DNA of 64,000 bases from an uncultured Nitrospiraceae bacterium (lineage in GTDB: Bacteria > Nitrospirota > Nitrospiria > Nitrospirales > Nitrospiraceae). The DNA lies in assembly GCA_963706325.1 (NCBI GenBank), contig CAVPLT010000001.1:960001-1024000 (forward strand). Reading direction: 5' to 3'. Both the position numbers and the translations under genes were made by a program. Under the pieces are notes generated by a model. That model was not told the origin of the DNA, did no database searches, and was given only the letters and a program-made list of their open reading frames with translations. Below are positions 33,837 to 54,435 of this stretch, one piece after another; positions within the stretch are counted from its first letter, which is position 1, and each line of letters starts with the position of its first letter.

Positions 33837-34066
33837 GCAGCATGGTCAAAAGGTCCGTCCAGCGAGGCCGTAACGAGGTCCGCGACGCGAGGAATAATGA
33901 GCATCACGCTTGCGGACGCCGGCGTGACGGTGAGCCGACTGTGTCTCGGGCCAAGGCGTCTCGTTCTTACCCGCCCGCCTGCCTAGACGGGCTCTTTTCT
34001 CATGGCGGTACGTTGACGCTGTGAACGATGCGTGGACGAAGGTGGCGGGCATTTTCAGCATCCTGC
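33837..34066. mobile_element. MITE-like intergenic repeat (family 1) with imperfect 15-bp TIRs and an internal structured module
   Basis: Ends GCAGCATGGTCAAAA and TTTTCAGCATCCTGC; internal similarity to 35465, 38094 and 62811; right end abuts the dapF TAG. Confidence 0.7.
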
Positions 34067-34935
34067 TACCGTAGCGTGCGCACGAACGACGGACTGAGGG
34101 AGCCTCGAGCCACTTCTTCGACCGGACCCTTCATGGTGAGGCTGAAATCCGGAGCGACTTCGATATTGAGACTCCCCCCTGGCATGTTCACCGTGACCGG
34201 GCCCTTGACCAGACCGAGCCGGACGGCAGCACTCGCCGCCGCGCAGGACGAGGAACCGGAGGCCTGGGTTTCGCCGGCGCCTCGCTCCCAAATGAGGATG
34301 AAGATTGCCTTGGGCCCGGTCGGGATCGCCAGTTGCACGTTGGTGCGCTTCGGAAAGAACGGGTGATTTTCAAGCGCAGGCCCGAGCAGCAGCAGGTCTT
34401 CACGGCGCCAGGTCTCGCCGGCCTTTTTGAAGAGCACGCAATGGGGATTGCCGACGCTGACACCCGTGAATTGGAGCGATTGTCCTGCCGCTTCGATAGG
34501 AACTTGGATCAATTCATCCATAGGCAGGGTACAGGGGAGTGCGGCTGGGTGAAAAGAGGCTCGCCCCATCTCGACGGTGGCCGCGGCGGCATCGCCGTGC
34601 CGATCGAGGTGGAGCGATATGGAGACCAGGCCGCCCTTGGTCTCGACGGTAAACTGTTTCTTCTTCGTCTTGCCGGTGGCATGGAGATAGCGAGCGAAGA
34701 TGCGCAATCCATTGCCGGACTTCTCAGCTTCGCTTCCATCGGGATTGAAGATACGCAGGCCGAAGTCGGCCTTCTTGGAAGGCACCAGCGCGAGGATGCC
34801 GTCACTGCCCACGCCCCAATGGCGATCGCAGATGCCGCGGATTTTACCAACGGAGAGCTTGAACGTCAGCTCTAGAGGATCCATCACCAAATAGTCATTG
34901 CCGAGTCCATGCCCGCGAAAAAACCCGTTCTTCAT
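34066..34935 (-). CDS. dapF: Diaminopimelate epimerase-family protein with Ser in place of both catalytic Cys
   Basis: HGLGNDY, GVGSDG, NPDGSEAEKSGNG, GNPH, WERGAGETQASGSS. Confidence 0.8.
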   Translation of the reverse strand: MKNGFFRGHGLGNDYLVMDPLELTFKLSVGKIRGICDRHWGVGSDGILALVPSKKADFGLRIFNPDGSEAEKSGNGLRIFARYLHATGKTKKKQFTVETKGGLVSISLHLDRHGDAAAATVEMGRASFHPAALPCTLPMDELIQVPIEAAGQSLQFTGVSVGNPHCVLFKKAGETWRREDLLLLGPALENHPFFPKRTNVQLAIPTGPKAIFILIWERGAGETQASGSSSCAAASAAVRLGLVKGPVTVNMPGGSLNIEVAPDFSLTMKGPVEEVARGSLSPSFVRTLR

Positions 34936-35047
34936 GCCTGGTCTCCTTGAGATGGGAAGAGGTGTCCCGTTACTCCTTGCAAAGCTGGAAAAGGTACTGC
35001 GGCGATTCTTGCCGCGTCAATGGGGAGAAGCGCACACATGATAAGAG

Positions 35048-35446
35048 TTACACGAGCGCGGTCCCTGGCGGGCGTTCAATGAGTTCAACCTCGTAGCCGT
35101 CCGGCGCGTCGATGAAGATGAATCGGCTACCCGAGGAGGTACGGGTTGGGCCGTCGGTAATCTTAACCTGCTGCGATTCCAAAGCCCGGATCGTGTCGTC
35201 CAAGTTTTCAACCTCAAAGGCGAGATGGACCAGATCTTCTTGCACGGTCACAGGTCCGCTGGCAGGAAAACTACACAGCTCGATGAGTTCCTCACTATTC
35301 GGCACCTTCAGAAATGCCAAATGCGATCCGCGTGGAGACACTTTGCGTTCCATGACCTCCAGGCCCAGTACATCCCGGTAGAACTGGATGGTTTGATCCA
35401 TATTGCTGACCCGCATGCGGGTGTGAAGCAGCTTTTTCACGCGCAC
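35048..35446 (-). CDS. VOC-family protein, lactoylglutathione lyase (glyoxalase I)-like
   Basis: LLHTRMRV, FY..VLG, HLAFEV and DAPDGYEVELIE; GTG start with AAGGAG RBS. Confidence 0.85.
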   Translation of the reverse strand: MRVKKLLHTRMRVSNMDQTIQFYRDVLGLEVMERKVSPRGSHLAFLKVPNSEELIELCSFPASGPVTVQEDLVHLAFEVENLDDTIRALESQQVKITDGPTRTSSGSRFIFIDAPDGYEVELIERPPGTALV

Positions 35447-35464
35447 GGTCCTGTCTCCTTTGTC

Positions 35465-35587
35465 GGCTGCTGAAAACATCCCCCAGCTGCGTTCTCAGTC
35501 GCTCGAACCCCTCAACGTACCCTGCCCGCGTACGCCTCGGGGTCCTCGTTCCTTGCGGCCTTGCTGGAGAATGTTTTGAGCAGCCTG
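35465..35587. mobile_element. MITE-like repeat family 1, short (~120 bp) form
   Basis: Ends GGCTGCTGAAAA and TTTTGAGCAGCC; shared CTCAACGTA and GCGGCCTTGCTGG cores. Confidence 0.7.
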
Positions 35588-35654
35588 TGAAATGATCCCT
35601 GTAAAGAACCGAAAGAGGAATTCAATAACGATCTTACCATTGCGGCGTATCACC

Positions 35655-36146
35655 TCACGTTGTCCTTGCCGGACCAGCCGTCTTACGAAGCAGAATCTCG
35701 GCGTAGCCTGGAATGAGAAAATTCGGCATGGGACCAATTTCCTTATAACCTTGCTTGCGGTAAAAGGCGCGCGCCCCCTCATTAAAATCCGACACGCAGG
35801 CGAACACATTCTTGGCCCGGGCGAATGTGAGCGATTCAATATGAGCCAGTAGCCGGCTACCGAGGCCGGTGCCTGTTGCGGAAGGGGCGATGCCGAGTAA
35901 TTCCAGATAGTCGCCGAAAAGGAATTTTCGTCGCACGATGGCGATCCCCAGCACGGTTCCTTCAGCTTCCATCACAAACGTGTCCCGAGCTTGCGGCACG
36001 GGCGAAAAGATCCTTCCCCAATCGTCGGCAGTAAACCCGAGTCGTTTCCAGGGGTCGGAATCAGTAAGGATCCCGATCACGGCATCGCGATCCTCCGGCC
36101 GCATATCGCGGATTATGGCCGGAGTGGGGCTGTGGCTTGGTTGCAT
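35655..36146 (-). CDS. GNAT-family N-acetyltransferase
   Basis: GTGLGSRLL acetyl-CoA motif; N..A..FY.KQGY. Confidence 0.88.
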   Translation of the reverse strand: MQPSHSPTPAIIRDMRPEDRDAVIGILTDSDPWKRLGFTADDWGRIFSPVPQARDTFVMEAEGTVLGIAIVRRKFLFGDYLELLGIAPSATGTGLGSRLLAHIESLTFARAKNVFACVSDFNEGARAFYRKQGYKEIGPMPNFLIPGYAEILLRKTAGPARTT

Positions 36147-36835
36147 CGTAAGAGGTCCGATACCGTCAGCGGAGTCAAGCCCTTGTCAGGCAGGACTGTG
36201 GTGGCTAAAGTTGTGGTTACCTCCCGGGTATGTTTGCCCTTCCCGTTAGCGTGCAACACGATGACACTGCCCGGCTTCATGTGTTTCCGCAGGCGGGCCA
36301 GAATCGCGTCCGCCGTGAGGGTCGGATCGGGGTCTCCCGACTCGAGACTCCACATGATAAACCGCAAGCCCAGAGCATTCACCGCTTCCACTGTCTGATC
36401 GTTATATTCCCCGTAGGGTGGTCGAAACAGGGTCGTCGAACGGCCGTATTTCGTCTTGAGGATTCGCACCGGTCCCACGATCTCTCGTTGTTGTTCTTCC
36501 AGCTCATGCATCGGGAGATGCGCATGCACCTCGCCATGCGTCCCGACTTCGAAAAATGGAACGGCCAAGAGCTCTTTCACCTCGGCGTCGTGCTTGGCCA
36601 TCCACCGACCGGACATGAAAAATGTGGCTGGAACTTTGTTCATAATGAGGAAATCGATTAATTCGCGGTCGAATCCCGGGGCGGTGCGCACCGGACACAG
36701 ATCATAGGTCAGCGCAACCGCCGGGCATGAGGGAGAGCCGGCCCTGATGACCTGGGCCTCCGCTAGATGGCCATGCACGACCAGCGCCATCGAACACATC
36801 GCTGATAGAGTCACTTGACACAGGTTCCATCGCAT
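36113..36835 (-). CDS. Secreted polysaccharide deacetylase (CE4)
   Basis: Signal peptide; ALTYDLC, ATFF, H...H, FRPPYG, DP, IVLH. Confidence 0.85.
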   Translation of the reverse strand: MRWNLCQVTLSAMCSMALVVHGHLAEAQVIRAGSPSCPAVALTYDLCPVRTAPGFDRELIDFLIMNKVPATFFMSGRWMAKHDAEVKELLAVPFFEVGTHGEVHAHLPMHELEEQQREIVGPVRILKTKYGRSTTLFRPPYGEYNDQTVEAVNALGLRFIMWSLESGDPDPTLTADAILARLRKHMKPGSVIVLHANGKGKHTREVTTTLATTVLPDKGLTPLTVSDLLRCNQATAPLRP

Positions 36836-36908
36836 GGAGGGGAGTATACCCGATGACAGGGACCGGCGATAGTTGACGGTCTGTCAAGGTGGCTGCTACG
36901 GTGACCAT

Positions 36909-38066
36909 ATGCAGGGACCTGCCTGGCAAATCGGTCGAGTGTTCGGAATTCCTATCTACGTGCATGCCTCATGGCTCTTCGTATTCTTCTTTGTGACCTG
37001 GTCGCTGGCCACAGGGTATCTGCCCGACATGCTACCAGGTCTCTCAGAGCCGCGGTATTGGGGGATGGGCGGGGTGGCCGCGCTTCTCCTGTTCGCATCG
37101 GTCCTGCTGCATGAACTCGGTCACTCCGTCGTTGCCCTTCGTTATCACATTCCCATCGGCCAAATTACGTTGTTCATTTTCGGTGGAGTGGCACAAATGC
37201 GAAAGGAACCGCCGCATCCGAGGGCGGAATTTCTCATCGCCATTGCAGGCCCGATTGTCAGCTTCTTTTTGGCGGGGCTGTGTATGAGCCTGGTCTTGTT
37301 GTTGGAATGGCTCCCGTCCGGGGCCTCTCTGCAGGGGTTAACGGCGCTCGGCGCACTCCTTGGGATGGTCAATACGCAGCTAGGCCTCTTCAACCTGCTG
37401 CCGGGTTTTCCGCTGGACGGCGGCCGAGCCCTGCGGGCGGGTCTTTGGGCTTGGAGTAAGGATTTCTATCGCGCGACGAGCCAGGCGGCATTGGTAGGAT
37501 TGCTCTTCGGTGTCGGTTTTGGTCTCTTCGGAGCGCTACTGCTGGTCGGCGCACTTTCCGGGACCCTGTCGAGCGCCCTGGCAAGTAGTGGGGGATGGAT
37601 TGTGCTGCTGGGGGCTTTTCTTTTCACGGCGGCGCGCGGAAGTCGCAAGCAGGCGGTGATCCGTGCGTCGTTAGCGTCGGTGTCCGTCCGCGAGCTCATG
37701 GTCAAGAACGTGGTGTCTCTATCCCCGGACATCACGCTGGAAGAAGCCGTACATCAATATTTCCTGCCCTACGGCTATGGGGGATTTCCGGTAGTGCAGG
37801 ATGGGCGGCTTCTAGGTATCGTGACGGTGCGTGAGGTACAGGCCGTCAACAATCCGCTCTGGGCGTTTCGCCGGGTTGCCGAGGTGATGCAGACTTCCAA
37901 TGACGAGATGATCGTATCGCCGGAAGTGCCGGTGATACAGGCATTGGAGAAAATGATGTCGTTTGGGGCAGAGCGGCTGATCGTGGTGCAAGATGGGGAA
38001 CTGCTCGGCCTGCTGACGCGCGCCTCTATCGGCAACTTCATCGAGCAGCGCAATCCATCCAAGTAG
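36909..38066 (+). CDS. Site-2 protease (peptidase M50) with a CBS pair
   Basis: HELGH, AGP and FNLLPGFPLDGG; C-terminal CBS domains. Confidence 0.93.
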   Translation: MQGPAWQIGRVFGIPIYVHASWLFVFFFVTWSLATGYLPDMLPGLSEPRYWGMGGVAALLLFASVLLHELGHSVVALRYHIPIGQITLFIFGGVAQMRKEPPHPRAEFLIAIAGPIVSFFLAGLCMSLVLLLEWLPSGASLQGLTALGALLGMVNTQLGLFNLLPGFPLDGGRALRAGLWAWSKDFYRATSQAALVGLLFGVGFGLFGALLLVGALSGTLSSALASSGGWIVLLGAFLFTAARGSRKQAVIRASLASVSVRELMVKNVVSLSPDITLEEAVHQYFLPYGYGGFPVVQDGRLLGIVTVREVQAVNNPLWAFRRVAEVMQTSNDEMIVSPEVPVIQALEKMMSFGAERLIVVQDGELLGLLTRASIGNFIEQRNPSK

Positions 38067-38093
38067 GTCATCCCACACCGCCTATTCTGTGCC

Positions 38094-38285
38094 ACAGGAT
38101 GCTTAAATGGCGACTTTCTTACCCGCCCAATCCCGGCGCGTCAAAGACTCGCCCTGCCCCACGCAAGGCCGCAGCGAGGTCCACGGCGCGAAGAATAATG
38201 AGCGCCACGGCTGTGGACGCCGGCGAGCCGGTGAGCCGCAGTGTCTCGGGCCGCGGCGTCTTGTTCTTACCCACCCGCCCCCACG
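38094..38285. mobile_element. MITE-like repeat family 1, truncated composite copy with the structured module
   Basis: Left TIR CAGGATGCTTAAA, TTCTTACCC(G/A)CCC present twice, module at 38175-38247; no right TIR. Confidence 0.65.
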
Positions 38286-38442
38286 GTGCCCCCTAACGTG
38301 AGGAGGTCTTTGTCGAAGCCGTTGAAGATCGTGAAATTCGTGTGGGCTGCCGGATGATTCGAGTGTTTCATGATTTTATCAGGCACGGACGAGGGCGCTG
38401 GAAAAGTCGCGAATGAGACAGAGCGCAGGTTGCGACCAGAAC

Positions 38443-39297
38443 CTACTGGGGCAGAAGTTCGGTCGTAGAGGCTAAGGGGGAAGGCCGCCGACACTGATAG
38501 GTGTGGGTTACCACTGCGCCCAGGAGGACGAGGGCCGAAGAGTAGTAGACCCAGAGGAGTAACAACACCACTTCGAGCAATGAGCCATACATCTGTGTGT
38601 AGACCGCGGCATCTTCTAAATAGGTCACGAACACCACCTTAGCGGAGACCCACAGCAGGCTGAAGACCGCCCCCCCGATGGTCGACTCTTTCCATGTGGG
38701 CCGCTGGTGAGGAAGGAATCGATAGAGACAGGTGACGGAAGCGAAGGCAAGCAGAAACGGCAATGAATAGGCGAGCAGGAAATCGTGCGCGGTGATCGCG
38801 ACCAAGTCGAGTCCCCACAAGTGCGGCGCATAGGCAGTCAGCAATTCAATAGCTTGTGTGGCAACAAATGAGATCAGGGCCAGAAAGCCGAGCATCCAAA
38901 TCATCGCGACGGCCACGAGCGTTGAAATCAGCGGATGCCGCTTGGCCGCCGTGCCGAACACAGTATTCATGGCGTAGTCTAGTTCATAAAATACCAGCGC
39001 GCTGAACCAACCGAATGCGAGGAAAACGGCCCATCGCACTTGCTCCTGCTCCGCCACGCGCCGAATATCTTTTGCCAGACGTTCACCCATGCTGGGAAGA
39101 AATCCCTTCAGGAATCCCAACAAGAATTGATAGCCGATGACGTCCTGGCTCACGATGAAGCTGATGCCGTAGAGCAAGAGGAACACCATGGGAAAGAGCG
39201 AGAGGAGGGAAAAGAAGGCCAGCGAAGCGGCCAGACTGAGACAGCCTCGCCGCCTAAAGGTTTCAATTACGTTGGAGAGAAACGATAATCCGATCAT
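38443..39297 (-). CDS. YihY/virulence factor BrkB family membrane protein
   Basis: AASLAFFSLLSLFP, YRFLP and YGSL...LLWVY motifs. Confidence 0.9.
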   Translation of the reverse strand: MIGLSFLSNVIETFRRRGCLSLAASLAFFSLLSLFPMVFLLLYGISFIVSQDVIGYQFLLGFLKGFLPSMGERLAKDIRRVAEQEQVRWAVFLAFGWFSALVFYELDYAMNTVFGTAAKRHPLISTLVAVAMIWMLGFLALISFVATQAIELLTAYAPHLWGLDLVAITAHDFLLAYSLPFLLAFASVTCLYRFLPHQRPTWKESTIGGAVFSLLWVSAKVVFVTYLEDAAVYTQMYGSLLEVVLLLLWVYYSSALVLLGAVVTHTYQCRRPSPLASTTELLPQ

Positions 39298-39433
39298 GCA
39301 AGCCCGTCTTGAGCCACGCCGACGCGGTTAGACCATCGGCCGGGTGCTGCCGGTCCTGTGGTGATGAATGTCGGTGCGCCACGATAACAGAGAACGGGGA
39401 AGGTTGCATGAGGATGCAAGAGATGCCCATCCG

Positions 39434-40909
39434 TTATTTCAGTAACGGTGCCGCATGGGTGGCCATTGACCATAGGCCGTTGGGGAACAGCCCCAGGAGC
39501 ACGACGCCGGCAAGAGCGCAGGCGAGGACGAACGATAGAGCCGGAGAGGTTTCGAATTGTGACTGAGATTGTGGCAAGCCTTCGGGATCGCGCATGTACA
39601 TCACCATCACAATTCGCAGGTAGTAGAAGGCAGAGATCGCGGCGAAGATGACGGCGACGACTGCCAGCCATGCCATTCCACCGTTCACCGCGGCCATGAA
39701 GATATAAAACTTGCCGATGAACCCTGCCGTCGGAGGAATGCCGGCCAGCGACACCAGAAAGACCAACATGAAAAAGGCCCCCAAGGGTTCACGTTTCGCC
39801 AGTCCCGCATAATCTTCGATGTTGTCGCTCTCCTGACCGTCTTTGCGCAGCATCCCCACCAGCGCAAATGCGCCAAGCGTCATGAACGAATATATCGCGA
39901 TGTAGAGCAACACACTTGCGAGGCCGGTTGAGGCGGCCATTCCGCCTTGCCGGCCCGCCACGACGACCCCGATGAGGGCATAGCCGGCATGGGCGATGCT
40001 GGAATAGGCCAACATACGCTTGATGTTGGTCTGCACGATTGCAACAAGGTTGCCCAAGGCCAGCGTCGCCAGGCAGATGACGGTGAACAGGATCGACCAA
40101 TCCGCGCTCACCCCTCCCAGGCCCTCCACAAACACCCGGAGAAAGGCGCCGAAGCTGGCCGCTTTCGAGGCAACGGCCATGAAGGCCGTGACAGACGTCG
40201 GCGCTCCCTGATAGACGTCCGGCGTCCACATGTGAAACGGCACGACGGCCAATTTGAATCCGAACCCGACTGTCAGCAACACCAGCGCCAGGGACAATAA
40301 GGGATTGCCCGTTCCCTGCGCGGCGATCTCCTCTGCGATCACAGAGAGACGAGTGCTCCCGGCCAGCCCGAACAAGAGCGAAATGCCGTACAAGAGAATT
40401 CCGGATGAAAACGCTCCCAGCACGAAATACTTTGCCGACGCTTCCAGCGAACGCGCCTCAGTTCGCTTGAGTCCGGCCATCACATAAAGCGAGAGGGACA
40501 TCAATTCGGTGCCGAGGTAGATCGTGAGGAGGTCGGCGGCGGAGACCATGACCATCATACCGACCAGCGATAGCAGGATGAAGCCGTAATATTCGCCGAT
40601 GTTCAATCGCTCCGCCTTGAGGTACGCGAGGGACAACAGGACCGTGAGCCCCGTCACGATATACAGCAGTAGTTTCCAGAAGGCCCCATACGCATCGATC
40701 ACAACCAGATCGCTGAAGGCATATTGGCGACCCATCAATTGAGAGGAAGTGAGACCTAGGCAAATAGCCAGGGCTGCTAAAGTCAGCCAAGCCAGGAGGT
40801 CCTTCTTGGAATCCGCAAGGATGGGATCCAGCACCAGGATGAGGCAAGCCGTGCCGATCACCACGAGTTCAGGAAGGATCGCGAGCAGGTCTTGTATGGG
40901 AATCGTCAT
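39434..40909 (-). CDS. nuoN: NADH-quinone oxidoreductase subunit N
   Basis: EASAKYF, FKLAVVPFHMWTPDVYQGAP, KRMLAYSSIAH. Confidence 0.96.
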   Translation of the reverse strand: MTIPIQDLLAILPELVVIGTACLILVLDPILADSKKDLLAWLTLAALAICLGLTSSQLMGRQYAFSDLVVIDAYGAFWKLLLYIVTGLTVLLSLAYLKAERLNIGEYYGFILLSLVGMMVMVSAADLLTIYLGTELMSLSLYVMAGLKRTEARSLEASAKYFVLGAFSSGILLYGISLLFGLAGSTRLSVIAEEIAAQGTGNPLLSLALVLLTVGFGFKLAVVPFHMWTPDVYQGAPTSVTAFMAVASKAASFGAFLRVFVEGLGGVSADWSILFTVICLATLALGNLVAIVQTNIKRMLAYSSIAHAGYALIGVVVAGRQGGMAASTGLASVLLYIAIYSFMTLGAFALVGMLRKDGQESDNIEDYAGLAKREPLGAFFMLVFLVSLAGIPPTAGFIGKFYIFMAAVNGGMAWLAVVAVIFAAISAFYYLRIVMVMYMRDPEGLPQSQSQFETSPALSFVLACALAGVVLLGLFPNGLWSMATHAAPLLK

Positions 40910-42477
40910 CGTCCGGTGGCCTGTTCAGAAGATGGAGTCGTGGGCGACGCGGCGATCGCGGCAGTGGACACTGGTTCTGTGCTGGGCTCAGGCCGGGGTT
41001 CAATCGCAAACACCGGCGTCCTCGGGGCGGCTAGCAAGTGCGCCACACTGGCATGCATTCGGGTCAGCAGAGGGTTGGGGAAGATGCCGATCACGAAGAC
41101 CAGGACGACCAGAGGGACCAGCGTGGCCGTTTCCCGAGCATTCAGGTCCAACAGATGCGCGCGATGCGTGGGCGAGGGATTTCCAAAAACCATTCGTTGC
41201 ATGAGCCAGAGGATATAGGCCGCTGCCAAGATAATGCCCAAGGCAGCGAAGGCCGTGGCGACCTTGCTCCAGAGGAACGTCCCGGCCAGCACCAGAAATT
41301 CGCCGACAAAGCTATTGGTGCCGGGAAGTCCTAAAGAGGACAGCGCAAAAATCATCAGGAACAGGGCATAGCGAGGCATCGGCCCGGCCAGTCCGGTATT
41401 GTCGAGAATTTCGCGGCTGTGGGTCCGCTCGTAGATGATCCCCACGCAGAGGAAGAGTCCGCCGGTGGTGATGCCATGGTTGACCATCTGCATGACCGCG
41501 CCTTCGATCCCTTGGGTATTCAAGACGAAGATGCCCAGCGTGACGAAGCCCATGTGACTCACGCTGGAGTAGGCGATGAGTTTTTTCATGTCGGTCTGTG
41601 CCAGGGCCATGTAAGCGCCATAAATAATGGCGATGATCGACAGCGCGATCATCGGCTTGGTAAATGTGACGGTCGCGTCCGGCAACATCGGCAAGGTAAA
41701 GCGGAGAAATCCATAGGTGCCCATCTTCAACAACACGCTCGCAAGAATCACACTGCCTGCAGTGGGAGCTTCCACGTGCGCGTCCGGCAACCAGGTATGA
41801 AATGGAAACATGGGGACTTTCACCGCAAAGGCGGCGAAGAACGCGAGGAACAGCCACATTTGCAGCGACGCACTGTACGTGCCCCGACTCAGCACCAGGA
41901 TGTCGAAGGTCTGCCCGCCGTGGAAGTAGAGGGCGATGATCGCGACCAGGAGCAAGAGGCTGCCTGCCAAAGTGTAGAGAAAAAATTTGATCGCGGCATA
42001 CAGGCGGTTGGGTCCTCCCCAGACGCCGATGAGCAAATACATCGGGATCAGCATGGCTTCCCAGAATACGTAGAACAACACAAAATCGAGGGCGACGAAG
42101 ACGCCCAGCATGGCCGTTTCCATCACCAGCAACATCGACATGAACAGCTGGACGCGTTTTTCGATCGCCGTCCAGGACACGGTGACGCAGAACGGCATGA
42201 GCAAAGTTGTCATCAGAAGTAGCGGAAAGCTGATGCCGTCGAGGCCGAGACTATATTGCACGGGCGGGGACGTAATCCAGGAGGCTCGTTCGACGAATTG
42301 CATCTCACCGGTTGAAGAGTCGAAGAGCCACCACAGCGGAAGCGAGCAGAGAAAATCCGCCACGGTAATGCCAAGCGCCAGCCAACGGGCGGACTCCGCC
42401 CTCACCAGGAGACAGAGAACGGCTCCCAGCAGGGGCAGGAAAATGATCAGACTGAGCCAGGGAAACGAACTCGTCAT
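40906..42477 (-). CDS. nuoM: NADH-quinone oxidoreductase subunit M
   Basis: FWEAMLIPM, KVPMFPFHTWLPDAHVEAP, LLKMG. Confidence 0.96.
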   Translation of the reverse strand: MTSSFPWLSLIIFLPLLGAVLCLLVRAESARWLALGITVADFLCSLPLWWLFDSSTGEMQFVERASWITSPPVQYSLGLDGISFPLLLMTTLLMPFCVTVSWTAIEKRVQLFMSMLLVMETAMLGVFVALDFVLFYVFWEAMLIPMYLLIGVWGGPNRLYAAIKFFLYTLAGSLLLLVAIIALYFHGGQTFDILVLSRGTYSASLQMWLFLAFFAAFAVKVPMFPFHTWLPDAHVEAPTAGSVILASVLLKMGTYGFLRFTLPMLPDATVTFTKPMIALSIIAIIYGAYMALAQTDMKKLIAYSSVSHMGFVTLGIFVLNTQGIEGAVMQMVNHGITTGGLFLCVGIIYERTHSREILDNTGLAGPMPRYALFLMIFALSSLGLPGTNSFVGEFLVLAGTFLWSKVATAFAALGIILAAAYILWLMQRMVFGNPSPTHRAHLLDLNARETATLVPLVVLVFVIGIFPNPLLTRMHASVAHLLAAPRTPVFAIEPRPEPSTEPVSTAAIAASPTTPSSEQATGR

Positions 42478-42571
42478 GAATACTTGGCCAAGAGTCCATG
42501 GCAGCGGAAGCAGGATACGCAGGCGATTCCTGACGACCGATGACCAGTGACCATTGATTCCCCTTCCGTTT

Positions 42572-44470: not shown

Positions 44471-44485
44471 GGCCGATACGGGAGA

Positions 44486-45447: not shown

Positions 45448-46023
45448 TTAATGCTCCTTTTGCGGGAGATTCTTGAATGCGACGTTGAAAAACGCCACAT
45501 TGCGGTGCTGTAGCTCAAGGCGTTTTTCCCGAACGGGAAAGGAGCGGTCGCCGATGGCGAGCAGTTGCTCCTTGTTAAGATGGAGCTGGCGCTTGTCGTA
45601 GACGGCCCATTCAAACTCGCGCGTCATTCCCAAGGCATCTACCGGGCAGGCATCCACGCAGAGGCCACAGAAGAGACAGCGGGTCATATCCATGTAGTAT
45701 TCTTTGGAGTACCGCTTGGTCGGTTCCCCGGGGACTTCAGCGCTGACGACTCGAATCACGCGCGAGGGGCAGGCGGCCTCGCAGAGATCGCAGCCGACAC
45801 ATTTCTCGGTGCCATCGTCGTATCGCAGCAAGGCGAGCATGCCGCGATAGTTATCCGGCAAAATGCGCTTCTCGTGCGGGTACTGCAGGGTGATCGGTTT
45901 GTAGTTAAGCAAATGCGTGAGTGTGGCTTTCATGCCTATGAGGAGTTCGTAGAAGGTCAACGTCTTCAGCCAATCGCTGAGAGATAGTTTTCGTTTCGGT
46001 TGTGCCGAGACGGCGGCGTTCAT
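45448..46023 (-). CDS. nuoI: NADH-quinone oxidoreductase subunit I
   Basis: Two CxxCxxCxxxCP ferredoxin motifs; T.QYP.E. Confidence 0.96.
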   Translation of the reverse strand: MNAAVSAQPKRKLSLSDWLKTLTFYELLIGMKATLTHLLNYKPITLQYPHEKRILPDNYRGMLALLRYDDGTEKCVGCDLCEAACPSRVIRVVSAEVPGEPTKRYSKEYYMDMTRCLFCGLCVDACPVDALGMTREFEWAVYDKRQLHLNKEQLLAIGDRSFPVREKRLELQHRNVAFFNVAFKNLPQKEH

Positions 46024-46032
46024 GTCCCTCCG

Positions 46033-47100
46033 TTACCGAGGAAAGAAATAGGCGGCGATGGCTGTCAGCACGATGTTTCCCAACGCGATGGGTAACATCA
46101 CTTTCCAGCCGAACCGCATCAGTTGGTCATATCGCAAGCGCGGCAGTGTCGCGCGTAACCAGAAAAACAGGAACAGAAAGAAGTACACCTTGACGGCAAA
46201 CCAGACGACGTTTTCCATCCAGGCGATGCGTTCCAGGCCGATGTATTCGAGGATGGTGCCGGGATAGGGCGCGTTCCACCCTCCGAGGAACAGCGCGGCC
46301 GCCACGCAGGAGACCAAAATCATGTTGGCGTATTCCGCGATGAAGAAAAAGGCGAAGCGCATGCCGCTGTACTCGGTGAAGAATCCTGCCACCAGCTCGC
46401 TCTCCGCTTCGGGCAGGTCGAATGGGACACGGTTGGTTTCCGCTACCGCGGAAATGACGTAGACCACGAAGGCGAAAATTTGCGGGAACGGCATGGCCAG
46501 GACGTACCAATTCCAAAACCCGCCGGCCTGCGCCTCCGTGATCTTCACGAGGCTGAGCGAGCCGGAGAGCAGAATGACGCCGACGATCGCGAGTCCGACG
46601 TTCAATTCGTAGCTGATCACCTGCGCGGCGGAACGGAGTCCGCCGAGAAGGGAATACTTACTGTTCGAGGACCAGCCGCCCAGGATGATCCCGAAGGCGC
46701 CGATCGAGGCAAAGGCCAAAATGTAGAGAATCCCGATGTTGATGTCGCTGATGATGAACGGCTTGATCTGCATGCCGAATAGCTCGATGGTCATGCTCGG
46801 ACCAAACGGGATCACCGCAAAGCCGATCATCGCGGGCACGAGCGCCAGGATCGGCGCGAGGGTAAACAGGAACTTGTTGGCTCCGGCCGGGATGATGTCT
46901 TCTTTGAAGAATAATTTGAGACCGTCCGCGATCGGTTGCAGAACGCCATAGGGGCCGACTTCCATCGGGCCCATGCGATCCTGCATCCAGCCGAGAACTT
47001 TCCGCTCGGCGAGGGTGAGGACCATGACGGTCAGCATCACCACCCCCATCACTGCGGCGATTTGAGCCAACGACACCGCCAGTCGCAATCCAATATCCAT
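46033..47100 (-). CDS. nuoH: NADH-quinone oxidoreductase subunit H
   Basis: ERK...[29 protein letters not shown]. Confidence 0.97.
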
Positions 47101-47125
47101 AACGACAATACTCCCTCGTTCTGTC

Positions 47126-49795
47126 TTACGAGACCTTCTCTAACGACACCCGCGCGAGCTTAAAATAGGGGATTTGAGTCTGGGGATCAATCATCCAATC
47201 AGCGAGCTGCTTGGCCTCGCCATCAAAATGTTCCGGGAACCAGACCAAGCCGACGGGCACACGCTCGCGCACCTTTACGGTCGTTGTCATGGCCGCACGT
47301 GGATTCGAAACCCGAACCTGTCCTCCGTCCGTCAGGCCCAATTTGGCGGCATCCACCGGATTGATCGACAGAAAGCCCTCTTGCTGCAATTGGAGAAGTC
47401 CCTTGGAGCGGGTCGACAACTTTCCGGAATGAAACAGTGTCTGGACGAACATAAGGGTGAATTGATCGCTGTCTGTCGAACGCGCCGGTGAGAGGGCATA
47501 ACGAGTCGCCAGATCGTCTGTAAATCCTTTGGTCAGATATTGGGTCAAAATGGGCTGATCCACTTTAGGTGTCGTCGGCGTCGGTCCCAGCAGACTATAA
47601 CCAGGGATAACACTTCGAATCTCTTTCAAGATTTCACGCGCATCTCCGTATTCAAGAGGCGAACCCATCAGCACGGAGATGGCTGAGAGTATTTCCCAAT
47701 CGGGACGGCTGTCGCCCACCGGATCAATCGCTTGGCGGACCGCCTGGACATGTCCTTCGGAGTTCGTAAAGGTTCCGTGTTTCTCCACATACGAAGAGGC
47801 CGGCAGCACCACATGGGCCATTGCTGCGGTTTCGGTGAGGAACAATTCCTGGCAAACCAGCAGCTCCAGCTTCGCGAGGCCTTCCTTGGCTTGGGCTGCG
47901 GCAGGCAGAGTGCCGACGGGGTTTTCTCCAACGATAAACATCGCTTTCATCGCGCTCTTGTTTGCAGCGGCCAGCATGTCGGTCAGCGAGGCGCCGGGAG
48001 TGCGAGGTAATTCCTCCCGCCACACTGTCGCGATGCGGTCGCGGGCGGCCTGGTCGTTGAGAGGCGCAGGACCTGGGAAAAATTCGGCCATCGCGCCCAT
48101 TTCAACAGCGCCTTGATCGTTGTTCTCTTCAGCGAGTGGCCCAAGCCCGCACCCTGGTTTGTCGAGTTTGCCCAGCAGGATCAGCAGATCCAGGAGATTC
48201 GTGAGGATGTCCTGTCCGCCTGGCTGACGCAGCACGCCATTTCCGACCAGGATGACCAACCGCTTCGCCATGGCCAATGTCTGCGCAGTCTCCGCCCACT
48301 GGGATCGTGTCTGACCGGTGGCCGCTTCCAAGGCCTCCCAGGAAGCGCCCGCCACAGCGGAAGTCAGGCGTTGCACAAATTCCGACGCCTGTTGAGACGT
48401 GGTCGCGTCGAACAGGTTCTGTTCGAGGACTGCTTTGATCAATCCGATGACGGTATTCCCGAATTGCGCCGGGTAGGTGAGGAAATGCTGGGCGGCCAAG
48501 TTGACGATATTGCTCAGCGTATCGATTGCCGGTTGCAGGGTTTCGATCGTCACGAGCGTCGCCTGACGTTTTTTGACGGCTTCTTTCACCCTGAGGCCCG
48601 TGACAGGACTCGTCTCGGTAATATTCGTGCCGACCAGGAGCAGAGTGTCGGCGGCGGTAATGTCTTCGAATGCGATGCTCCACCGGTGGGTGCCCTGCAC
48701 CCGTCGCAAGGCCTGCACCCCGCTGATATGTCCATACCGAGCGCTGCTGTCGATGTGATTGGTGCCGATCACCTGGCGCATGAATTTCTGAAACAGATAG
48801 AGGTCTTCGTTGGTGCAGCGAGACGTGATGAGCCCGCCGAACGCATCCGGCCCATGAGATAACTTCAGGCGCAACGCCTGCTCGGCAACATATTCCAGCG
48901 CATCTTCCCAGGTGGCCTCGACCAATGTGCCGTTGCGGCGGATCAGAGGGTGCATGAGACGGTCGGGGTGGGTGGAGACATGGAAGCCGAAAAAGCCGCG
49001 TGCGCAAAGATCGCCGTTGTTCCGGCCCGCTCCATACTGCGAGTTGACCTCGATCAGTTCGTTGCCCTTGGTTTGCACGGTAATCCGGCAGCCGTCCCCG
49101 CAGAAGGTGCAAATGGTTTCGGCCCGCTTGAGCATCCAGGGGCGATATTCGTACATGGACAGGCGGCTCACGATGGCCCCAACGGGACAGATCTGCACGC
49201 AGCCCCCGCAAAATTCGCAGTCGAGCTGATGGGCCGCGAAATGTTTGATCTCGGTCATGGTGCCGCGGCCGACCGGCGCCAGCGCTTTCACGTCCATGAC
49301 TTCGTCGCAATAGCGGACGCAGCGCAAACATTGCACGCAGCGGTTCATCTGCGTTTCTATGAGCGGGCTAAAGTATTCCTTCTGGAAGATGCGCTTGGTC
49401 TCCGTAAATCGGCTTGTCGTCGGGCTGTATTGGTGTGAAAAGTCTTGCAGGTCGCACTTCCCCCCTTGATCGCAGACCGGACAATCGAGCGGATGGTTGG
49501 CCAGGATGAATTCCAGCACTGATTTATGCGCATCGTCGACGACGGTGGTGGCGGTTCGAACGGACATGCCTTCGGCCACCGGCGTACTGCAGGCGGTCTG
49601 GAGTTTCGGCATCTTTTCGACTTCGACGAGGCACATCCGGCAGTTGGCGTCCGGCTTCAGTTTGGGGTGGTAGCAGAAATGCGGAATCATCACGCCCACG
49701 CGCCGGGCCGCTTCTATAACGAGCGTGCCCTTGGGGACCGCAACCGTGGTGCCGTCGATCGTGAGGCGAACTGTTTCTGTCATTGGATCAGCCAT
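47126..49795 (-). CDS. nuoG: NADH-quinone oxidoreductase subunit G (long form, N7 cluster motif present)
   Basis: [33 protein letters not shown] and CTFCGDGC...C. Confidence 0.93.
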
Positions 49796-49899
49796 AGTCA
49801 GACTACATATCCTGATGTGCCGACGGGTTCATGTGGAAAGCGTGCAACGTGATGGACTCGCGAAGACTCTCCAGCCACATGTCGGCACAAGGCTCCATG

Positions 49900-51207
49900 C
49901 TACGTTCTCGTTCCGACCGGATCAGGTCGTATCAAATTCGCCGCCTCGGCGGCATGAATCAGCGTGACATACTCGTGCCGCCAATGCTTGAGCGTGCTCA
50001 TAATAGGGGACACCTCGGCATCACCGAAGGCGCAGACCGTGCGTCCGGCGATGTTTTTGCACAGGTCGGTCAAAGTTTCCAGGTCCGACATCTGCCCGCG
50101 CTTCTTCACGATCCTGCGCATGATTTGCACGAGCCATGAACTGCCCTCCCGGCAAGGACTGCATTTCCCGCAAGACTCGTGATAGAAAAACTCCATCAGG
50201 CGCAATGCAGCCCATACCATGTCGGTGCCTTCTTCCATGACCGTGACACCGCCTGAGCCCAACATCGATCCAGCCTGCGCCACCGATTCGAAATCCAATT
50301 TGACGTCTAAATGATCAGGGGTCAGAAAAGGCGCGGACGCGCCGCCTGGAATGAAGGCTTTGAGTTTCTTGTCCGATCGCATGCCGCCGGCTTGTTCGTA
50401 AATCAAATCCCGGAAGGTGATCCCCATCGGAACTTCGTAATTGCCCGGCCTGGCCACATGGCCGCTCACGCAGAACACCCGAGTGCCCGTACTCTTCGGC
50501 GGCGAGCCGATCGAGGCGAACCATTCGGCCCCGCGAGTCAAGATATGCGGCAGATTGGCCAGGGTCTCGACGTTGTTCACCACGGTGGGCTTATTATAGA
50601 GCCCGTGCGTGGCGGGGAATGGCGGCTTGACGCGTGGGAGGCCGCGTTTGCCTTCGAGAGACTCAAGGAGGGCCGTTTCCTCGCCGCAAATATAGGCGCC
50701 GGCGCCCCGGTGGACCCAGACATCGATGGTGCTGTTACCGCCGAGAATATTTTTGCCGACATACCCGGCGGCGCGGGCTTCCGCGAGCGCACGTTCAAGG
50801 ATCTTGGCCCCCAGGACAAATTCGCCACGGATATAAATGTAGGAACTAACGGCGCCGATCGCGTAACAAGCGATCACAATGCCCTCGATCAATTGGTGCG
50901 GATCACGCTCGATCAACTGGCGATCTTTAAAGGTGCCGGGCTCGCTCTCATCGGCATTGCAGCAGAGGTAGCGCGGTCCTTTGTAGTCCTTGGGAAGAAA
51001 TCCCCACTTGACTCCGGTGGGGAATCCCGCACCGCCGCGTCCGCGCAACCCCGACTTCATGACCGTGGCCGTCACATCCGCTGGGCTGACCTTCCCGACC
51101 ACTTTCCGTAGCGCCTGGTATCCGCCCGCGCGCTCATATTCGGCCAGTGAGCCCGTATAGCCGGGTTGCAGCATGTTCTTCAGAAGAATCGGTTCGTACG
51201 TCTTCAT
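49900..51207 (-). CDS. nuoF: NADH-quinone oxidoreductase subunit F
   Basis: GRGGAGFPTG.KW, NADESEPG, GAGAYICGEET, ESCGKCSPCREG. Confidence 0.97.
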   Translation of the reverse strand: MKTYEPILLKNMLQPGYTGSLAEYERAGGYQALRKVVGKVSPADVTATVMKSGLRGRGGAGFPTGVKWGFLPKDYKGPRYLCCNADESEPGTFKDRQLIERDPHQLIEGIVIACYAIGAVSSYIYIRGEFVLGAKILERALAEARAAGYVGKNILGGNSTIDVWVHRGAGAYICGEETALLESLEGKRGLPRVKPPFPATHGLYNKPTVVNNVETLANLPHILTRGAEWFASIGSPPKSTGTRVFCVSGHVARPGNYEVPMGITFRDLIYEQAGGMRSDKKLKAFIPGGASAPFLTPDHLDVKLDFESVAQAGSMLGSGGVTVMEEGTDMVWAALRLMEFFYHESCGKCSPCREGSSWLVQIMRRIVKKRGQMSDLETLTDLCKNIAGRTVCAFGDAEVSPIMSTLKHWRHEYVTLIHAAEAANLIRPDPVGTRT

Positions 51208-51299
51208 ACCCTTAATCTCGTGCAGCGCCGCACGTGGAGCGTGAAAGCGCGGGAAGTTCCCTCAGTTCGAATTGCGACCGTCGAAAGACGATTCACGTT

Positions 51300-51836
51300 T
51301 CACGCACCCGGCTTCGCCACGGCCGGTTCCGGCCACATAAAGGGACCGGTCTTCAGCGACGAAGCGCCTGTGTCTCGCAAATCGGCCAGGATGCGATCGA
51401 GTTTGGCCTCGGTCAGCCGTTCGTAGTAATCATCGTTGATCTGCATCATCGGAGCGGTCCCGCAGGCGGCCAAACATTCTACGGCGCTCAACGTGAACAA
51501 TTTGTCTGCCGTCGTCTCGCCTGGTCTGATGCCCAGTTTCGTGCCGATCCAGCCGATGAGGGTATCAGAACCGACGAGCGCGCACATCAGCGATTTGCAG
51601 ACCTGAATGTGAAACGTTCCCACCGGCTTCAGATTCAACATCGTGTAAAACGTGGCTGTCTCATACACCTGCGGCGTGGTCAGCTTCAAGATGCCGGCGA
51701 TTTCCTGCATGGCTGATTCCGTGACATAGCCCTGTTCTCGTTGCGCGAGATATAGCAGGGGCAAAAGCGCCGACCGCCTTACCGGATACCGGCTCAGAAT
51801 ATCGTCGATTTCTGCCTGGTGCGTTTCTTTCAACAT
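51300..51836 (-). CDS. nuoE: NADH-quinone oxidoreductase subunit E
   Basis: ATFY.M, C....C and ECLAAC..AP 2Fe-2S motifs. Confidence 0.96.
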   Translation of the reverse strand: MLKETHQAEIDDILSRYPVRRSALLPLLYLAQREQGYVTESAMQEIAGILKLTTPQVYETATFYTMLNLKPVGTFHIQVCKSLMCALVGSDTLIGWIGTKLGIRPGETTADKLFTLSAVECLAACGTAPMMQINDDYYERLTEAKLDRILADLRDTGASSLKTGPFMWPEPAVAKPGA

Positions 51837-51869
51837 TATCTCTTATCTATGCCCGCTACCAAGATAAGG

Positions 51870-52020
51870 CGTGAGGGCACCATGTTCCAACGTGCGCGCG
51901 TCCGCAAGTAGCCCCGCACAAGCCAAGAAACGCAGGTGTATGGCGCCTCCAAGTGCGCGCATCGAGCGAGCACATTCTGATCGTGCGCGATCTGCGAGCA
52001 AGGAGGCACTATCGACCCTG
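51870..52020. repeat. Intergenic repeat family 2 inside the nuo operon (nuoCD-nuoE gap)
   Basis: TGCGCGCATCGAGCGAG...TTCTGA...GCGCG....GCGAG core shared with 54310-54360; boundaries approximate. Confidence 0.55.
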
Positions 52021-52024
52021 GCGT

Positions 52025-53776
52025 TCATCTATCACATTCTCCCATCACGATGTCGTAGGTCCCGAAGATTGTGATGATGTCCGAGATTAAATACCCGCGG
52101 GCCATGTGGTCGAACGCGCCCATATGAATGAAAGAGGGGGCGCGTATTTTCATTCGGTAGGGCCGAGGGCTTCCGTCACTGACGATGAAGAAGCCGAGCT
52201 CCCCCTTGGGCACTTCCGTGCCGCAATAGGTTTCGCCCTTCGGCGGCTTGAAGCCCTGCGTGAAAATAATGAAGTGGTGAATCAGGCTCTCCATGTCCCG
52301 CATAACCTTGTCCTTGGGCGGGGGAATGACGTGCGGCACATCTGCCATGATCGGCCCCTCCGGCATCTGGTCGAGGCACTGCGCGATGATGCGCGCGCTT
52401 TGCCGAAGCTCTTCCATGCGAACCCAGTAGCGATCGTAGGTATCGCCCTGTTTGCCGACGGGCACTTCCCATTCGACCTTGTCATAGACTCCGTAGGGCT
52501 CGTACTTGCGCACGTCGTAGTCCACGCCGGATCCTCGCAATGTGGGGCCGGTGAGCCCGAAATTGATCGCGTCTTCCGCTGAAATCACCGCCACGTTTCT
52601 CGTTCGTCCCACCCAAATTCGATTGGACATGAGGAGCTGGTTGTACTCGTTGACCTTGTCCGGGAATGTATGCAGAAATGCTTTCAGCCGAGCTACGAGA
52701 TCAGGCGTGAAATCACTGTCCACTCCGCCGATGCGGTAGTAATTCAACGTCAAGCGCGCGCCGCACAGCTTTTCGAACATATCCAGGAGCACTTCGCGCT
52801 CCCGAAAAGTCCAAAAGAACACGGTCATGGCCCCGATGTCGAGGGCCTGCGTGCCGAGCCAGAACAAGTGCCCGACGATCCGTTGCATCTCCGCGACCAG
52901 CGTGCGGACATATTCCGCTCGTTCAGGTACCGTGATATCCAGCAGTTTCTCTACCGTGCGGACGTACGCGTAATTATTCGTCATGGCGCACACATAATCG
53001 AGTCGGTCGGTGTGCGGGATGATCTGCATATAGTGGAGGCCTTCGGCCAGCTTTTCGACTCCCCGGTGCAGATACCCGAGGTCCGGTGTCGCCTTCACGA
53101 TCCGCTCGCCGTCCAATTCCAATACCACTCGGAGCACGCCGTGCGTACTGGGGTGTTGCGGCCCCATGTTCAGCAGCAACTCCTCGCGGCGGCGCGTGCC
53201 TCCTGTCGGTGCGGTCGCAAGGAAGGCCTGTTTCTCTTTGTCGGGAATCTCCCCTTCCGTTTGCTCGGCGGGTGCTTCATCCAGACGCGGAATGAATGGA
53301 AAAGAACTGCGCCAGCCGCGCCCTTCGGTCGGGAAATCTTTCCGAAGCGGATGGCCTTCCTCATAGTCTTCCGGCAACAGGATGCGCCGCAGATCGGGAT
53401 GCCCCACGAAGATAATGCCCATGAGATCGAAAACCTCACGCTCCATGAACTCGGCGCCTTTCCAGATGCCGGTGACGGACGCGATTTCCGGAGCGTCTTC
53501 AGTGACGCGGGCCTTGACCCTGATACGCCGCCGATGCGGCAATGAGAGCAGTTGGTACACGACTTCGAAGCGTTCCGGATCGTCGGGATAATCCACCGCG
53601 CAAATGTCGGTGATATGGTCGAACGACGCTTCAGGCGTCTCGTGAAGCCAGCGCGCAATATCGACGATCCGCGCGGCGGCCACGCGAGCTGTCACCTCAT
53701 TTCGAGCGGTATCCACCTCCACGCCTCGGATGGCGTCGGGAAAGGCGGTCATCAGTCGTTCAAGCAGCGGTTGCAT
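52025..53776 (-). CDS. nuoCD: Fused NADH-quinone oxidoreductase subunit C/D
   Basis: EREVFDLMG and GHPLRKDFP (C); NMGPQHPSTHGVLR, GYLHRG, DRLDY and GECDR (D). Confidence 0.96.
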   Translation of the reverse strand: MQPLLERLMTAFPDAIRGVEVDTARNEVTARVAAARIVDIARWLHETPEASFDHITDICAVDYPDDPERFEVVYQLLSLPHRRRIRVKARVTEDAPEIASVTGIWKGAEFMEREVFDLMGIIFVGHPDLRRILLPEDYEEGHPLRKDFPTEGRGWRSSFPFIPRLDEAPAEQTEGEIPDKEKQAFLATAPTGGTRRREELLLNMGPQHPSTHGVLRVVLELDGERIVKATPDLGYLHRGVEKLAEGLHYMQIIPHTDRLDYVCAMTNNYAYVRTVEKLLDITVPERAEYVRTLVAEMQRIVGHLFWLGTQALDIGAMTVFFWTFREREVLLDMFEKLCGARLTLNYYRIGGVDSDFTPDLVARLKAFLHTFPDKVNEYNQLLMSNRIWVGRTRNVAVISAEDAINFGLTGPTLRGSGVDYDVRKYEPYGVYDKVEWEVPVGKQGDTYDRYWVRMEELRQSARIIAQCLDQMPEGPIMADVPHVIPPPKDKVMRDMESLIHHFIIFTQGFKPPKGETYCGTEVPKGELGFFIVSDGSPRPYRMKIRAPSFIHMGAFDHMARGYLISDIITIFGTYDIVMGECDR

Positions 53777-53786
53777 CGTCCTCGAT

Positions 53787-54266
53787 TTACTTCACGAATA
53801 CTCGCTCGCGCTGGATCTTTTGCTGCAGTTTCAGGAGGCCGTCCAGCAACGCTTCCGGGCGAGGGGGGCAACCGGCAATATACACGTCGACCGGAATGAT
53901 CTGGTCGACTCCCTGGACCACCGCGTAGCTGTTGTAGTGATTGCCGGACGTGGCGCAGGATCCCATGGAGATGACGTAACGCGGCTCCGGCATCTGATCG
54001 TAGATCCGGCGGATGACCGGCGCCATCTTTCGGCAGACGGTTCCCGCTACGATCATCAAGTCTGATTGGCGAGGCGACGCGCGGAAGACACCCGCCCCGA
54101 ACCGGTCGATGTCGTAGCGCGAGGACACGCTCGCGATCATCTCGATGGCGCAACAGGCCAAGCCGAACGTCATGGGCCACAAGGAAGACTTGCGCGCCCA
54201 ACAGACGAGGGCATCGAGATTCGTCGTCATGATGTTGGCATCGAGCTGGCGTTCTAAAAAGCTCAT
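53787..54266 (-). CDS. nuoB: NADH-quinone oxidoreductase subunit B
   Basis: [27 protein letters not shown]. Confidence 0.97.
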
Positions 54267-54299
54267 AGCCTTTTCCTTTCTCTCCCCAGTTGGAGGGGA

Positions 54300-54435
54300 T
54301 GAGCGGTCTGCCCTTCACTGCGCGCGTCGAACGAGGTCTTCTGAGGCGCGCGTTTCGCGAGGTGCGCGACGCGACGAATAAGGAGCGTCATGTCTGCGCA
54401 CGCCGGCGAGATGGTGAGCCGGCCGTGTCCGATGC
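54300..54435. repeat. Composite intergenic repeat (family 2 core plus structured module) in the nuoA-nuoB gap
   Basis: Family 2 core at about 54310-54360 followed by the module at 54358-54431, homologous to 33874-33947 and 38175-38247. Confidence 0.65.

Follow-up and report, generated by a model that had tools for sequence, protein, structure and literature searches.

Three copies of a repeated module of about 70 nt, all on the plus strand, lie in 64,000 nucleotides of DNA from an uncultured Nitrospiraceae bacterium (contig CAVPLT010000001.1, positions 960,001 to 1,024,000; this whole stretch is referred to as the window), and they raise the question of what kind of element the module is and how it comes to stand where it does. 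A sequence-only reading had placed the three copies correctly and had offered a mobile structured RNA, a ribozyme or a single-stranded DNA (ssDNA) element as explanations; the last of these fits best. As described below, the module has a covarying fold, occupies sites that are empty in related genomes, and ends in a tail whose bases covary with host bases in front of its 5' end. We give an about even chance to the module being a non-autonomous mobile element of folded ssDNA whose tail picks the target, by a logic like that of the insertion sequence IS608 and with an enzyme acting in trans.

The fold was examined in 316 distinct copies, 208 from genomes and 108 from metagenome contigs, which were pooled under a structural filter that allowed at most one mismatch per stem and scored G.T as paired. 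Stem 1 has 6 bp and stem 2 has 5 bp, and stem 3 (6 bp) follows directly after stem 1 with no unpaired base between them. The sequence-only reading had drawn stems 1 and 2 correctly, together with the consensus of the loop and the bulge of 6 nt; it was also right that stem 3 pairs, but not that this stem is 4 bp long. Among 5372 stem pairs, 5248 were Watson-Crick, 46 G.T, 19 A.C, 47 G.A and 12 of other kinds. When 107 copies were aligned with a covariance model, stems 1, 2 and 3 were paired in 98.8, 99.1 and 99.8% and both-sided changes were seen at 11 of the 17 stem pairs, values that come from an alignment fitted to the model. Because many copies are related, we also used a tree of the 262 standard-length copies and on one copy per flank context. 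With the tree taken into account, pair 22-29 showed 31 joint changes against 5.1 expected and pair 53-66 showed 13 against 0.6; same-branch changes were far above expectation at pairs 17-34, 16-35, 11-46, 13-44 and 52-67 as well. Covariation in a larger alignment had been named beforehand as the test of selection on the structure, and the stems hold in the 316 copies. Single copies of the plus strand fold no better than shuffled sequences (z of 0.40, -1.08 and -1.89); it is covariation and not energy that supports the fold. A repeat between genes can covary strongly without being a functional RNA. Loop 2 consists of a tandem G.A, one covarying pair and a GAATAA loop. Its start is GA/GA in 221 copies, GC/GC in 48, GA/TC in 16 and CA/TG in 14, and since GA/GA is swapped for these alternatives the positions must be part of a helix, in which GA/GA probably forms sheared tandem G.A pairs. 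A second module family has its tandem G.A inside stem 1. Many of the unpaired bases of the module are near-invariant.

The limits of the module were taken from empty alleles matching both flanks, which were found for 86 of the 316 copies. The sequence of empty hosts runs through the same CGAG, which is therefore target; the module had been thought to start at CGAGG, and begins in fact at the last G of that motif. The 5' junction was exact in this comparison, some alignments being poorer, and the 3' junctions were imprecise, often with 1-2 shared bases; the commonest 3' outcome was a tail of 7-9 nt after stem 3 and a loss of 2-4 target bases. No target-site duplication was seen at the module in the same comparison. 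The module is strand-asymmetric and lacks terminal inverted repeats: its ends are not complementary, and pairs 7-77 and 6-78 do not covary. Position -1, the last host base, is G in 310 of the 316 copies and position -2 is a purine in 313. The triplet at the foot, already present in empty sites, is GAG in 186 copies, GGG in 75, AGG in 31 and AAG in 12. Beyond it the 316 copies stand in 88 upstream contexts, among them an IS5-type MITE (miniature inverted-repeat transposable element).

Two orthologous spacers illustrate the presence and absence of the module. At 30 nuoA/nuoB loci of the genus, read by eye, the module was present in 6, a hairpin repeat called host B was present without the module in 8, and other sequence was found in 13; a remnant, a gap or the absence of a host accounts for the remaining three. 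With full support, one filled locus groups as sister to an empty one, and its 3' junction is a different one; this suggests that insertion happened here more than once. Among 29 uvrC/dapF loci the module occurs in this genome only, where it sits in a MITE-like repeat, host A; the two nearest relatives have host A without the module, or no host. Modules also occur within modules: loop 3 is entered behind GAG, loop 2 behind either GAG or AAG. There are 25 clusters with at least two arms, mostly nested and combining up to four modules (L154; also L151, L195, L210 and L304). The nuoA/nuoB spacer of the genus contains several unrelated repeats in different lineages (L386-L406: GTGAAAC-like and TTCGTCG-like short tandem units, and host B) and is a hot spot of repeat turnover.

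The first sign of a link between host and module was the mutual information between column 7 (flank, -2) and column 73 (tail, +3), which ranked among the top pairs. Flank positions -1 to -3 are counted before the insertion bond and tail positions +2 to +4 after stem 3. In the 316 copies -2/+3 is A.T in 186, G.G in 107, A.A in 12 and another combination in 11, so that 305 fit. At -3/+4 we counted G.G 248, A.A 18, A.T 10, A.G 14, G.A 10 and 16 others, and -1/+2 is G.G in 303. On a tree built without the flank and tail columns concerned, -2 and +3 changed jointly on 14 branches (18 and 19 changes) where 1.3 were expected, which is rank 3 of 1681 pairs; on all but two of these branches the change was between A.T and G.G. 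Positions -3 and +4 changed jointly on 10 branches (2.4 expected, rank 7), five times from G.G to A.A and three times to A.T, and their link holds within both -2 classes (p 1e-13 and 8e-8). The fit was retained when one copy per context was used (84 of 88), in metagenome copies that were collected once the idea had been formed (103 of 108 at -2/+3), and in all 34 copies of the second module family, where +3 is T in 16 and A in 14 opposite A at the same kind of site; 17 source loci of this family also fed the first set. Outer modules of nests fit in 11 of 12 cases across inserts of 70-200 nt, the exception being L221. One and the same host site carries AAG with tail GTT (L076, L227, L276) and AGG with tail GGT (L152, L175). 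Over the pooled 948 cells, an antiparallel code of G.G, A.T and A.A accounts for 884, identity for 691, and Watson-Crick plus wobble pairing for 213. Flank and tail thus covary according to the first of these codes, a relation invisible in the window because all three of its copies share GAG and GTG. The code is the reverse-Hoogsteen code of purine-motif DNA triplexes: according to passages of PMC4666352, the purine triplex motif is the one made up of A(T).AT and G.GC in antiparallel arrangement, and RNA is stated there not to form it.

Other contacts within the module were considered and did not hold. A pseudoknot between the bulge and loop 3, put forward by the sequence-only reading, looked compatible in 22 copies (81.5% paired) and failed in the larger set: pair 40-58, the sole freely varying one, is unpaired in 51 of 98 copies, and joint changes on the tree number 2 against 5.5 expected at 40-58 and 1 against 1.5 at 38-60. 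G39 is invariant and position 59 is C or T in 262 of 270 copies; the two may make a lone contact. A Watson-Crick closing stem of the leading GAG with the final CTC or CTT showed no covariation, nor did loop 3 with the tail or the bulge with the flank. Loop 3 (54408-54417) reads GAG-NYG-GTG-A and is invariant in the sets examined. It has the same GAG/GTG mirror as flank and tail, and may contain the same non-canonical pairs.

An iterated nhmmer profile found 30 copies at E<0.01 in this 4.2-Mb genome, two of them inside predicted genes, and none at E<=1 in the reversed genome. A covariance model built from 22 copies was used on other genomes and matched 47 of 60 other Nitrospiraceae, which represent 32 of the 39 genera; matches per genome ranged from 0 to more than 70. 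In a sample of the phylum it matched 9 of 17 Nitrospiraceae genomes and the one genome of a second family in the same class, and none of 122 genomes from 19 other families; a variant module was found in 3 of 7 genomes of a second order, that of the second family just mentioned. A pattern scan of species genomes gave at least 120 stretches, and all 80 titles among the matches listed were Nitrospira or higher Nitrospirota ranks. The module had no match in viral contigs or in phage or plasmid collections. As the sequence-only reading had it, no known family matches: Rfam 15 gave no match at gathering score in the window, none up to E 10 in 33700-38400 and none up to E 1 in 17 module loci. Four metagenome contigs (L257, L313, L275, L315) carry a module subfamily with its own host and an AGG/GGA-type code; L257 and L313 have 65-67% G+C and encode flanking proteins only 29-33% like those of this genome, so that the module may occur outside Nitrospiraceae. 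At L078 (82-166 and 219-260) an incomplete repeat of the 3' end of a tRNA precedes a nested module, and at L085 a module lies between two tRNA genes.

If the favoured reading is right, two stacked helices, one of stems 1 and 2 and the other of stem 3, would bring the 5' end of the module beside its 3' tail. Tail bases +2 to +4 would then read the three purines 5' of the insertion bond through antiparallel reverse-Hoogsteen G.G, T.A and A.A contacts, and this pairing would put the 3' end of the target at the first G of the module and so yield an exact 5' junction; closure at the 3' side would be less exact, falling 7-9 nt beyond stem 3 and costing the target 2-4 bases. Self-insertion would follow because the loops of the module contain GAG and AAG. 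The chemistry would probably be done by a trans-acting enzyme, which the analogy with IS608 suggests is HUH-like and which would bind the invariant unpaired bases. Once filled, hosts would be spread by whatever route is theirs, which for host A is that of an IS5-type MITE. We infer that the target is chosen by the tail ahead of insertion and that the enzyme is supplied in trans; covariation alone fits a target-choosing guide as well as a clamp selected later, and the matching triplet is already in the empty sites. The movement and site choice of very small repeats such as REPs, SDRs and inserts inside MITEs are a largely open question, for which this family offers a testable handle in its defined ends, a natural series of target and tail swaps, and a code that is not Watson-Crick. 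Should the tail be a guide, nature would here select targets through reverse-Hoogsteen pairs, and the module should be redirected by altering a single base; its size of 70 nt puts tests with synthetic oligonucleotides within reach. A wider claim, that the module represents a new class of mobile DNA consisting of a 70-nt folded strand with a reprogrammable reverse-Hoogsteen guide, with no dedicated transposase (a general host enzyme or self-catalysis taking its place) and with nesting through its own loops, seems to us unlikely.

Several observations weigh against a tail-guided ssDNA element. Because no pyrimidine third partner covaries (7-77 and 6-78 are at chance level, and no covariation links -2 or -3 to the TCYY end or to the bulge), the triplex-type geometry is something we infer from the code. 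The code rests mainly on -2/+3, since -1/+2 hardly varies and the fit at -3/+4, 276 of 316, is the weaker one. Many copies are amplified composites and not independent insertions. An enzyme was also sought. A linked transposase or reverse transcriptase (RT), which the sequence-only reading had suggested looking for, was not found, and profiles of PF01797, PF00078, PF13751, PF02371 and PF04986 were run over the same 61 genomes, which are drafts in which module counts are lower bounds. The module is carried by 48 of these genomes and absent from 13; Y1 was present in 32 of those 48 and 9 of those 13, RT in 20 of 48 and 2 of 13, IS110 in 21 of 48 and 2 of 13, and PF13751 in 15 of 48 and 1 of 13, and Y2 occurred in 3 of the 48; none of these associations was significant. 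This genome, which is 96% complete, gave no Y1, Y2, RT or IS5-type match. Neither module nor host A was found beside 20 Y1 loci, which are part of the Y1 loci present, no module occurred in 15 RT loci, and no neighbouring protein recurred in 106 module loci; orphan half-modules around a gene were absent from this genome. In Y1 transposition no target bases are lost, unlike at the module. Recombination between copies also acts: in the nuoA/nuoB spacer, orthologous modules (L377 against L379, L381 and L382) differ at 7-8 of 66 positions, a compensatory pair included, and 7 of 66 differences where nuoB is 98% identical point to replacement or gene conversion in place. This last case is among the observations that suit a rather unlikely rival, in which the module lacks an insertion reaction of its own. 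Copies would pass from one hairpin repeat to another through gene conversion or template switching, at GAG/GGG microhomologies that the repeats share, and the flank-tail match would be a structural clamp that shuts the fold and is maintained because selection acts on the composite repeat. Such a process would also suit the shared bases at imprecise 3' junctions and the lack of a linked enzyme, and the flanks are indeed hairpin-prone (median -12.0 against -9.4 kcal/mol in random intergenic DNA); however, they are mutually complementary no more than shuffled pairs (p 0.58), the 88 upstream contexts are barely alike beyond three purines, the 5' junctions are exact with the matching triplet already in empty sites, and for the tail to fit in 84 of 88 contexts it would have had to adapt in each of them separately.

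We favour DNA over RNA as the form that acts. In the opposite case, which we judge improbable, the plus transcript would fold and be cut or joined at the G|G bond, as a small ribozyme or by an RNA enzyme, an RT in trans would copy it back, and flank and tail would form trans Watson-Crick/Hoogsteen RNA pairs. The size, the invariant unpaired bases and the GNRA-like hexaloop would suit a small RNA, and isolated U.A, A.A and G.G reverse-Hoogsteen pairs are common in RNA, although, as noted above, the code is of a type reported not to form an RNA triple helix. G.T exceeds A.C (46 against 19, p 0.001), a point for RNA and against ssDNA, the filter having scored G.T as paired; yet at 0.9% of stem pairs it is 4.7-fold rarer than in the acceptor and anticodon stems of the tRNAs of this genome (4.1%, p 1e-8). 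Between co-directional genes, called with a simple gene caller for the 30 copies here and 129 other loci, the folded strand is sense in 37 cases and antisense in 55 (p 0.08). This slight antisense excess would suit selection against the cutting of mRNA, but it amounts to no sense preference and host A behaves alike (36 against 51, the same ratio); the replication-strand split of the module, 12 against 18, is not significant. One RNA-library contig spans 54223-54434 with the module intact, but such contigs are strandless and may derive from DNA, and no joint skipping the module was seen among the matches listed for it; the RNA runs were covered in small shares only (0.06-0.19), in contig form, without strand or ends. 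RT matches were absent from this genome and from two of the three genomes with the most copies, and no Rfam ribozyme matched. The mobility proposed by the sequence-only reading is borne out by presence/absence and nesting, and its RNA or ribozyme is not favoured. That the module is a domesticated regulatory RNA element, kept for host benefit in stability, termination or protein binding, is most improbable: copies stand in either orientation in operons, are patchy at orthologous sites, number 0 to more than 70 per genome and include nested and IS110-interrupted ones. They are enriched between convergent and rare between divergent genes (9 and 2 of 30, against 276 and 450 of all 2036 spacers), but since host A is placed alike this placement is inherited from the host. 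The lack of association in five enzyme families leads to a further rival, in which the folded ssDNA itself transfers strands as a natural DNA catalyst, or needs no more than a general host enzyme (a topoisomerase or a repair nuclease, for example), and hence no transposase travels with it. Substrate-reading bases that adjoin the opened bond, the near-invariant unpaired bases and persistence in 32 of 39 Nitrospiraceae genera would agree with this; we nevertheless think it very unlikely, because only five families were profiled, in draft genomes, a burst may have been followed by loss of the enzyme, two strand-transfer steps ask much of 70 nt, and we know of no natural catalytic DNA.

Tiny nesting mobile repeats are a known kind, and the flank-tail code is a feature for which we found no description. 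No description of the 70-nt module was found in literature searches, whose coverage left out most subscription journals, nor in passages of PMC6006769, PMC12306157, PMC2996986, PMC8266576, PMC3116915, PMC10969869 and bioRxiv 10.64898/2026.09.22.753630. The closest logic is that of the IS200/IS605 group, as described in passages of PMC3201880: these have strand-specific hairpins, insert 3' of a short sequence lying outside the element and make no target duplication, and in IS608 element bases read the target, with two bases just 3' of the hairpin foot forming C-G*G and T-A*A triplets with guide purines 5' of the hairpin. There the guide lies 5' of the hairpin and is partly Watson-Crick, the triplets serve as support and the cut is 19 nt from the hairpin, whereas in the module the reading bases are 3' of the fold, the code is G.G/T.A/A.A and the bond is at the foot of stem 1; the module further differs from IS200/IS605 in that 2-4 target bases are lost, no TnpA is linked and, in the 20 Y1 loci examined, no Y1 partner shares its ends. 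The repetitive extragenic palindromic elements (REP, BIME, REPIN) moved by TnpAREP (RAYT) are, in passages of PMC8266576, PMC6006769 and PMC3116915, hairpins of one strand, extragenic and present in many copies, whose 5' foot has a purine-rich tetranucleotide; they form mosaics, are enriched between convergent genes and serve as targets of the IS110 family. The module is likewise extragenic and multicopy with G.A and G.T features on one strand, but has no fixed GTAG/GGAG, its foot purines belong to the target and vary with the tail, and no REPtron or RAYT gene flanked by the module was found; at 70 nt, with two helices and a bulge, and in nesting in itself, it is also built differently. In behaviour it resembles the small dispersed repeats (SDR) of Nostocaceae, a different phylum, which can be set beside it from descriptions in parts of citing papers only (PMC4390886, PMC5861425): very small mobile modules with an exact bond in a short sequence, SDR5 lying between bases 3 and 4 of HIP1. 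Compared with prokaryotic MITEs as treated in passages of PMC10969869, host A with its IS5-family ends fits and the module is cargo, itself without inverted ends or duplication. The purine-motif (R) intrastrand triplexes of BoxC, PIT and TMECO, in the portions of PMC4666352 consulted, share the antiparallel G.G and A/T.A code and are repeated extragenic elements; they have stems of 6-15 nt with the pyrimidine strand inside the repeat, whereas the module has three positions, takes one strand from the insertion site and has no pyrimidine partner that we could find.

Host A has 136 profile matches in the genome at a fixed length of 123-128 bp. Both of its ends surround PF13751 loci of related genomes (L489, L491, L492, L494, L510), and three of these PF13751 proteins were scanned and all scored above the NF033581 cut-off for the IS5 family; this genome has no match to such a transposase. 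As host A shares IS5-family terminal repeats, filled hosts can spread with the module as cargo. Its direct repeat measures 0-1 base in 36 of 39 old copies, taken outside the consensus end used. The replication-strand split is 52 against 84, only between co-directional genes. The interior looks like a long hairpin with varying arms and a tandem G.A, which is unusual for a MITE.

IS110 elements were found in modules as well. An IS110 gene between half-modules (L528, L561) was considered as an autonomous parent and rejected, as these are ordinary IS110 insertions with an AG core. Members of the group interrupt loop 2 in three genomes, at 6 of 50 loci (three found by script and three by eye): L528 (G049:C201), L561, L566, L567, L571 (G344) and L582 (G031), with the AG core at both ends. 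This usual repeated core makes the module a target of IS110 and not a derivative; the module has no short core repeated at both of its own ends. In G344, 4 of 8 identical IS110 copies are in modules and the other 4 at unrelated GAATAAG sites. The 5' non-coding end of the element contains a stretch complementary to the module loop, which is probably the target guide of a bridge RNA. Related IS110 elements stand in host A at AG cores (L537, L541, L552, L558, L573, L574), so the group is aimed at several local repeats. TGTCTT, found near one IS110 end (L537-L585), is also the commonest module tail end (33941-33947 in the window) and is lacking from tails of the second module family; the match may be due to chance.

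In the window, copy 1 occupies 33878..33947 (70 nt, plus strand, ends taken from empty alleles) and has all the parts described: the arm of stems 1 and 2 with tandem G.A and GAATAA loop, the 6-nt bulge, the 6-bp stem 3 and the tail. It is slightly decayed, with single mismatches in stems 2 and 3. The host-owned target triplet GAG, present in empty alleles and covarying with the tail, is at 33875..33877 (plus), and the tail triplet GTG, the guide proposed from that covariation, at 33941..33943 (plus). Its spacer lies between dapF and uvrC, both on the minus strand, so that it is antisense to both. Copy 2 (38179..38247, plus, 69 nt) has lost one base of stem 3 and sits in a truncated host A in the spacer of convergent genes, with GAG at 38176..38178 and GTG at 38241..38243, both plus. 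Copy 3 (54362..54431, plus, 70 nt) has every stem perfect and lies in the nuoA/nuoB spacer, antisense to the nuo operon because both genes are on the minus strand; its GAG at 54359..54361 (plus) ends host B at empty orthologous sites too, and its GTG is at 54425..54427 (plus). The left part of host B covers 54310..54361 (plus), its right arm being replaced beyond the module; the host B motif has 25 matches in the genome and 2 in the reversed control. Host A around copy 1 extends over 33837..34066 (plus; an empty copy has about 125 bp); its terminal inverted repeats resemble those of the IS5 family, and further copies of it lie on the minus strand at 35465-35587 and 62813-62922. The central loop of host A contains at 33964..34005 (plus) a second module unrelated to the 70-nt one, which is found alone in the orthologue L409. 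This second module is about 42-50 nt long, has further starts at 38116 and 38264, and was gained independently of the 70-nt module.

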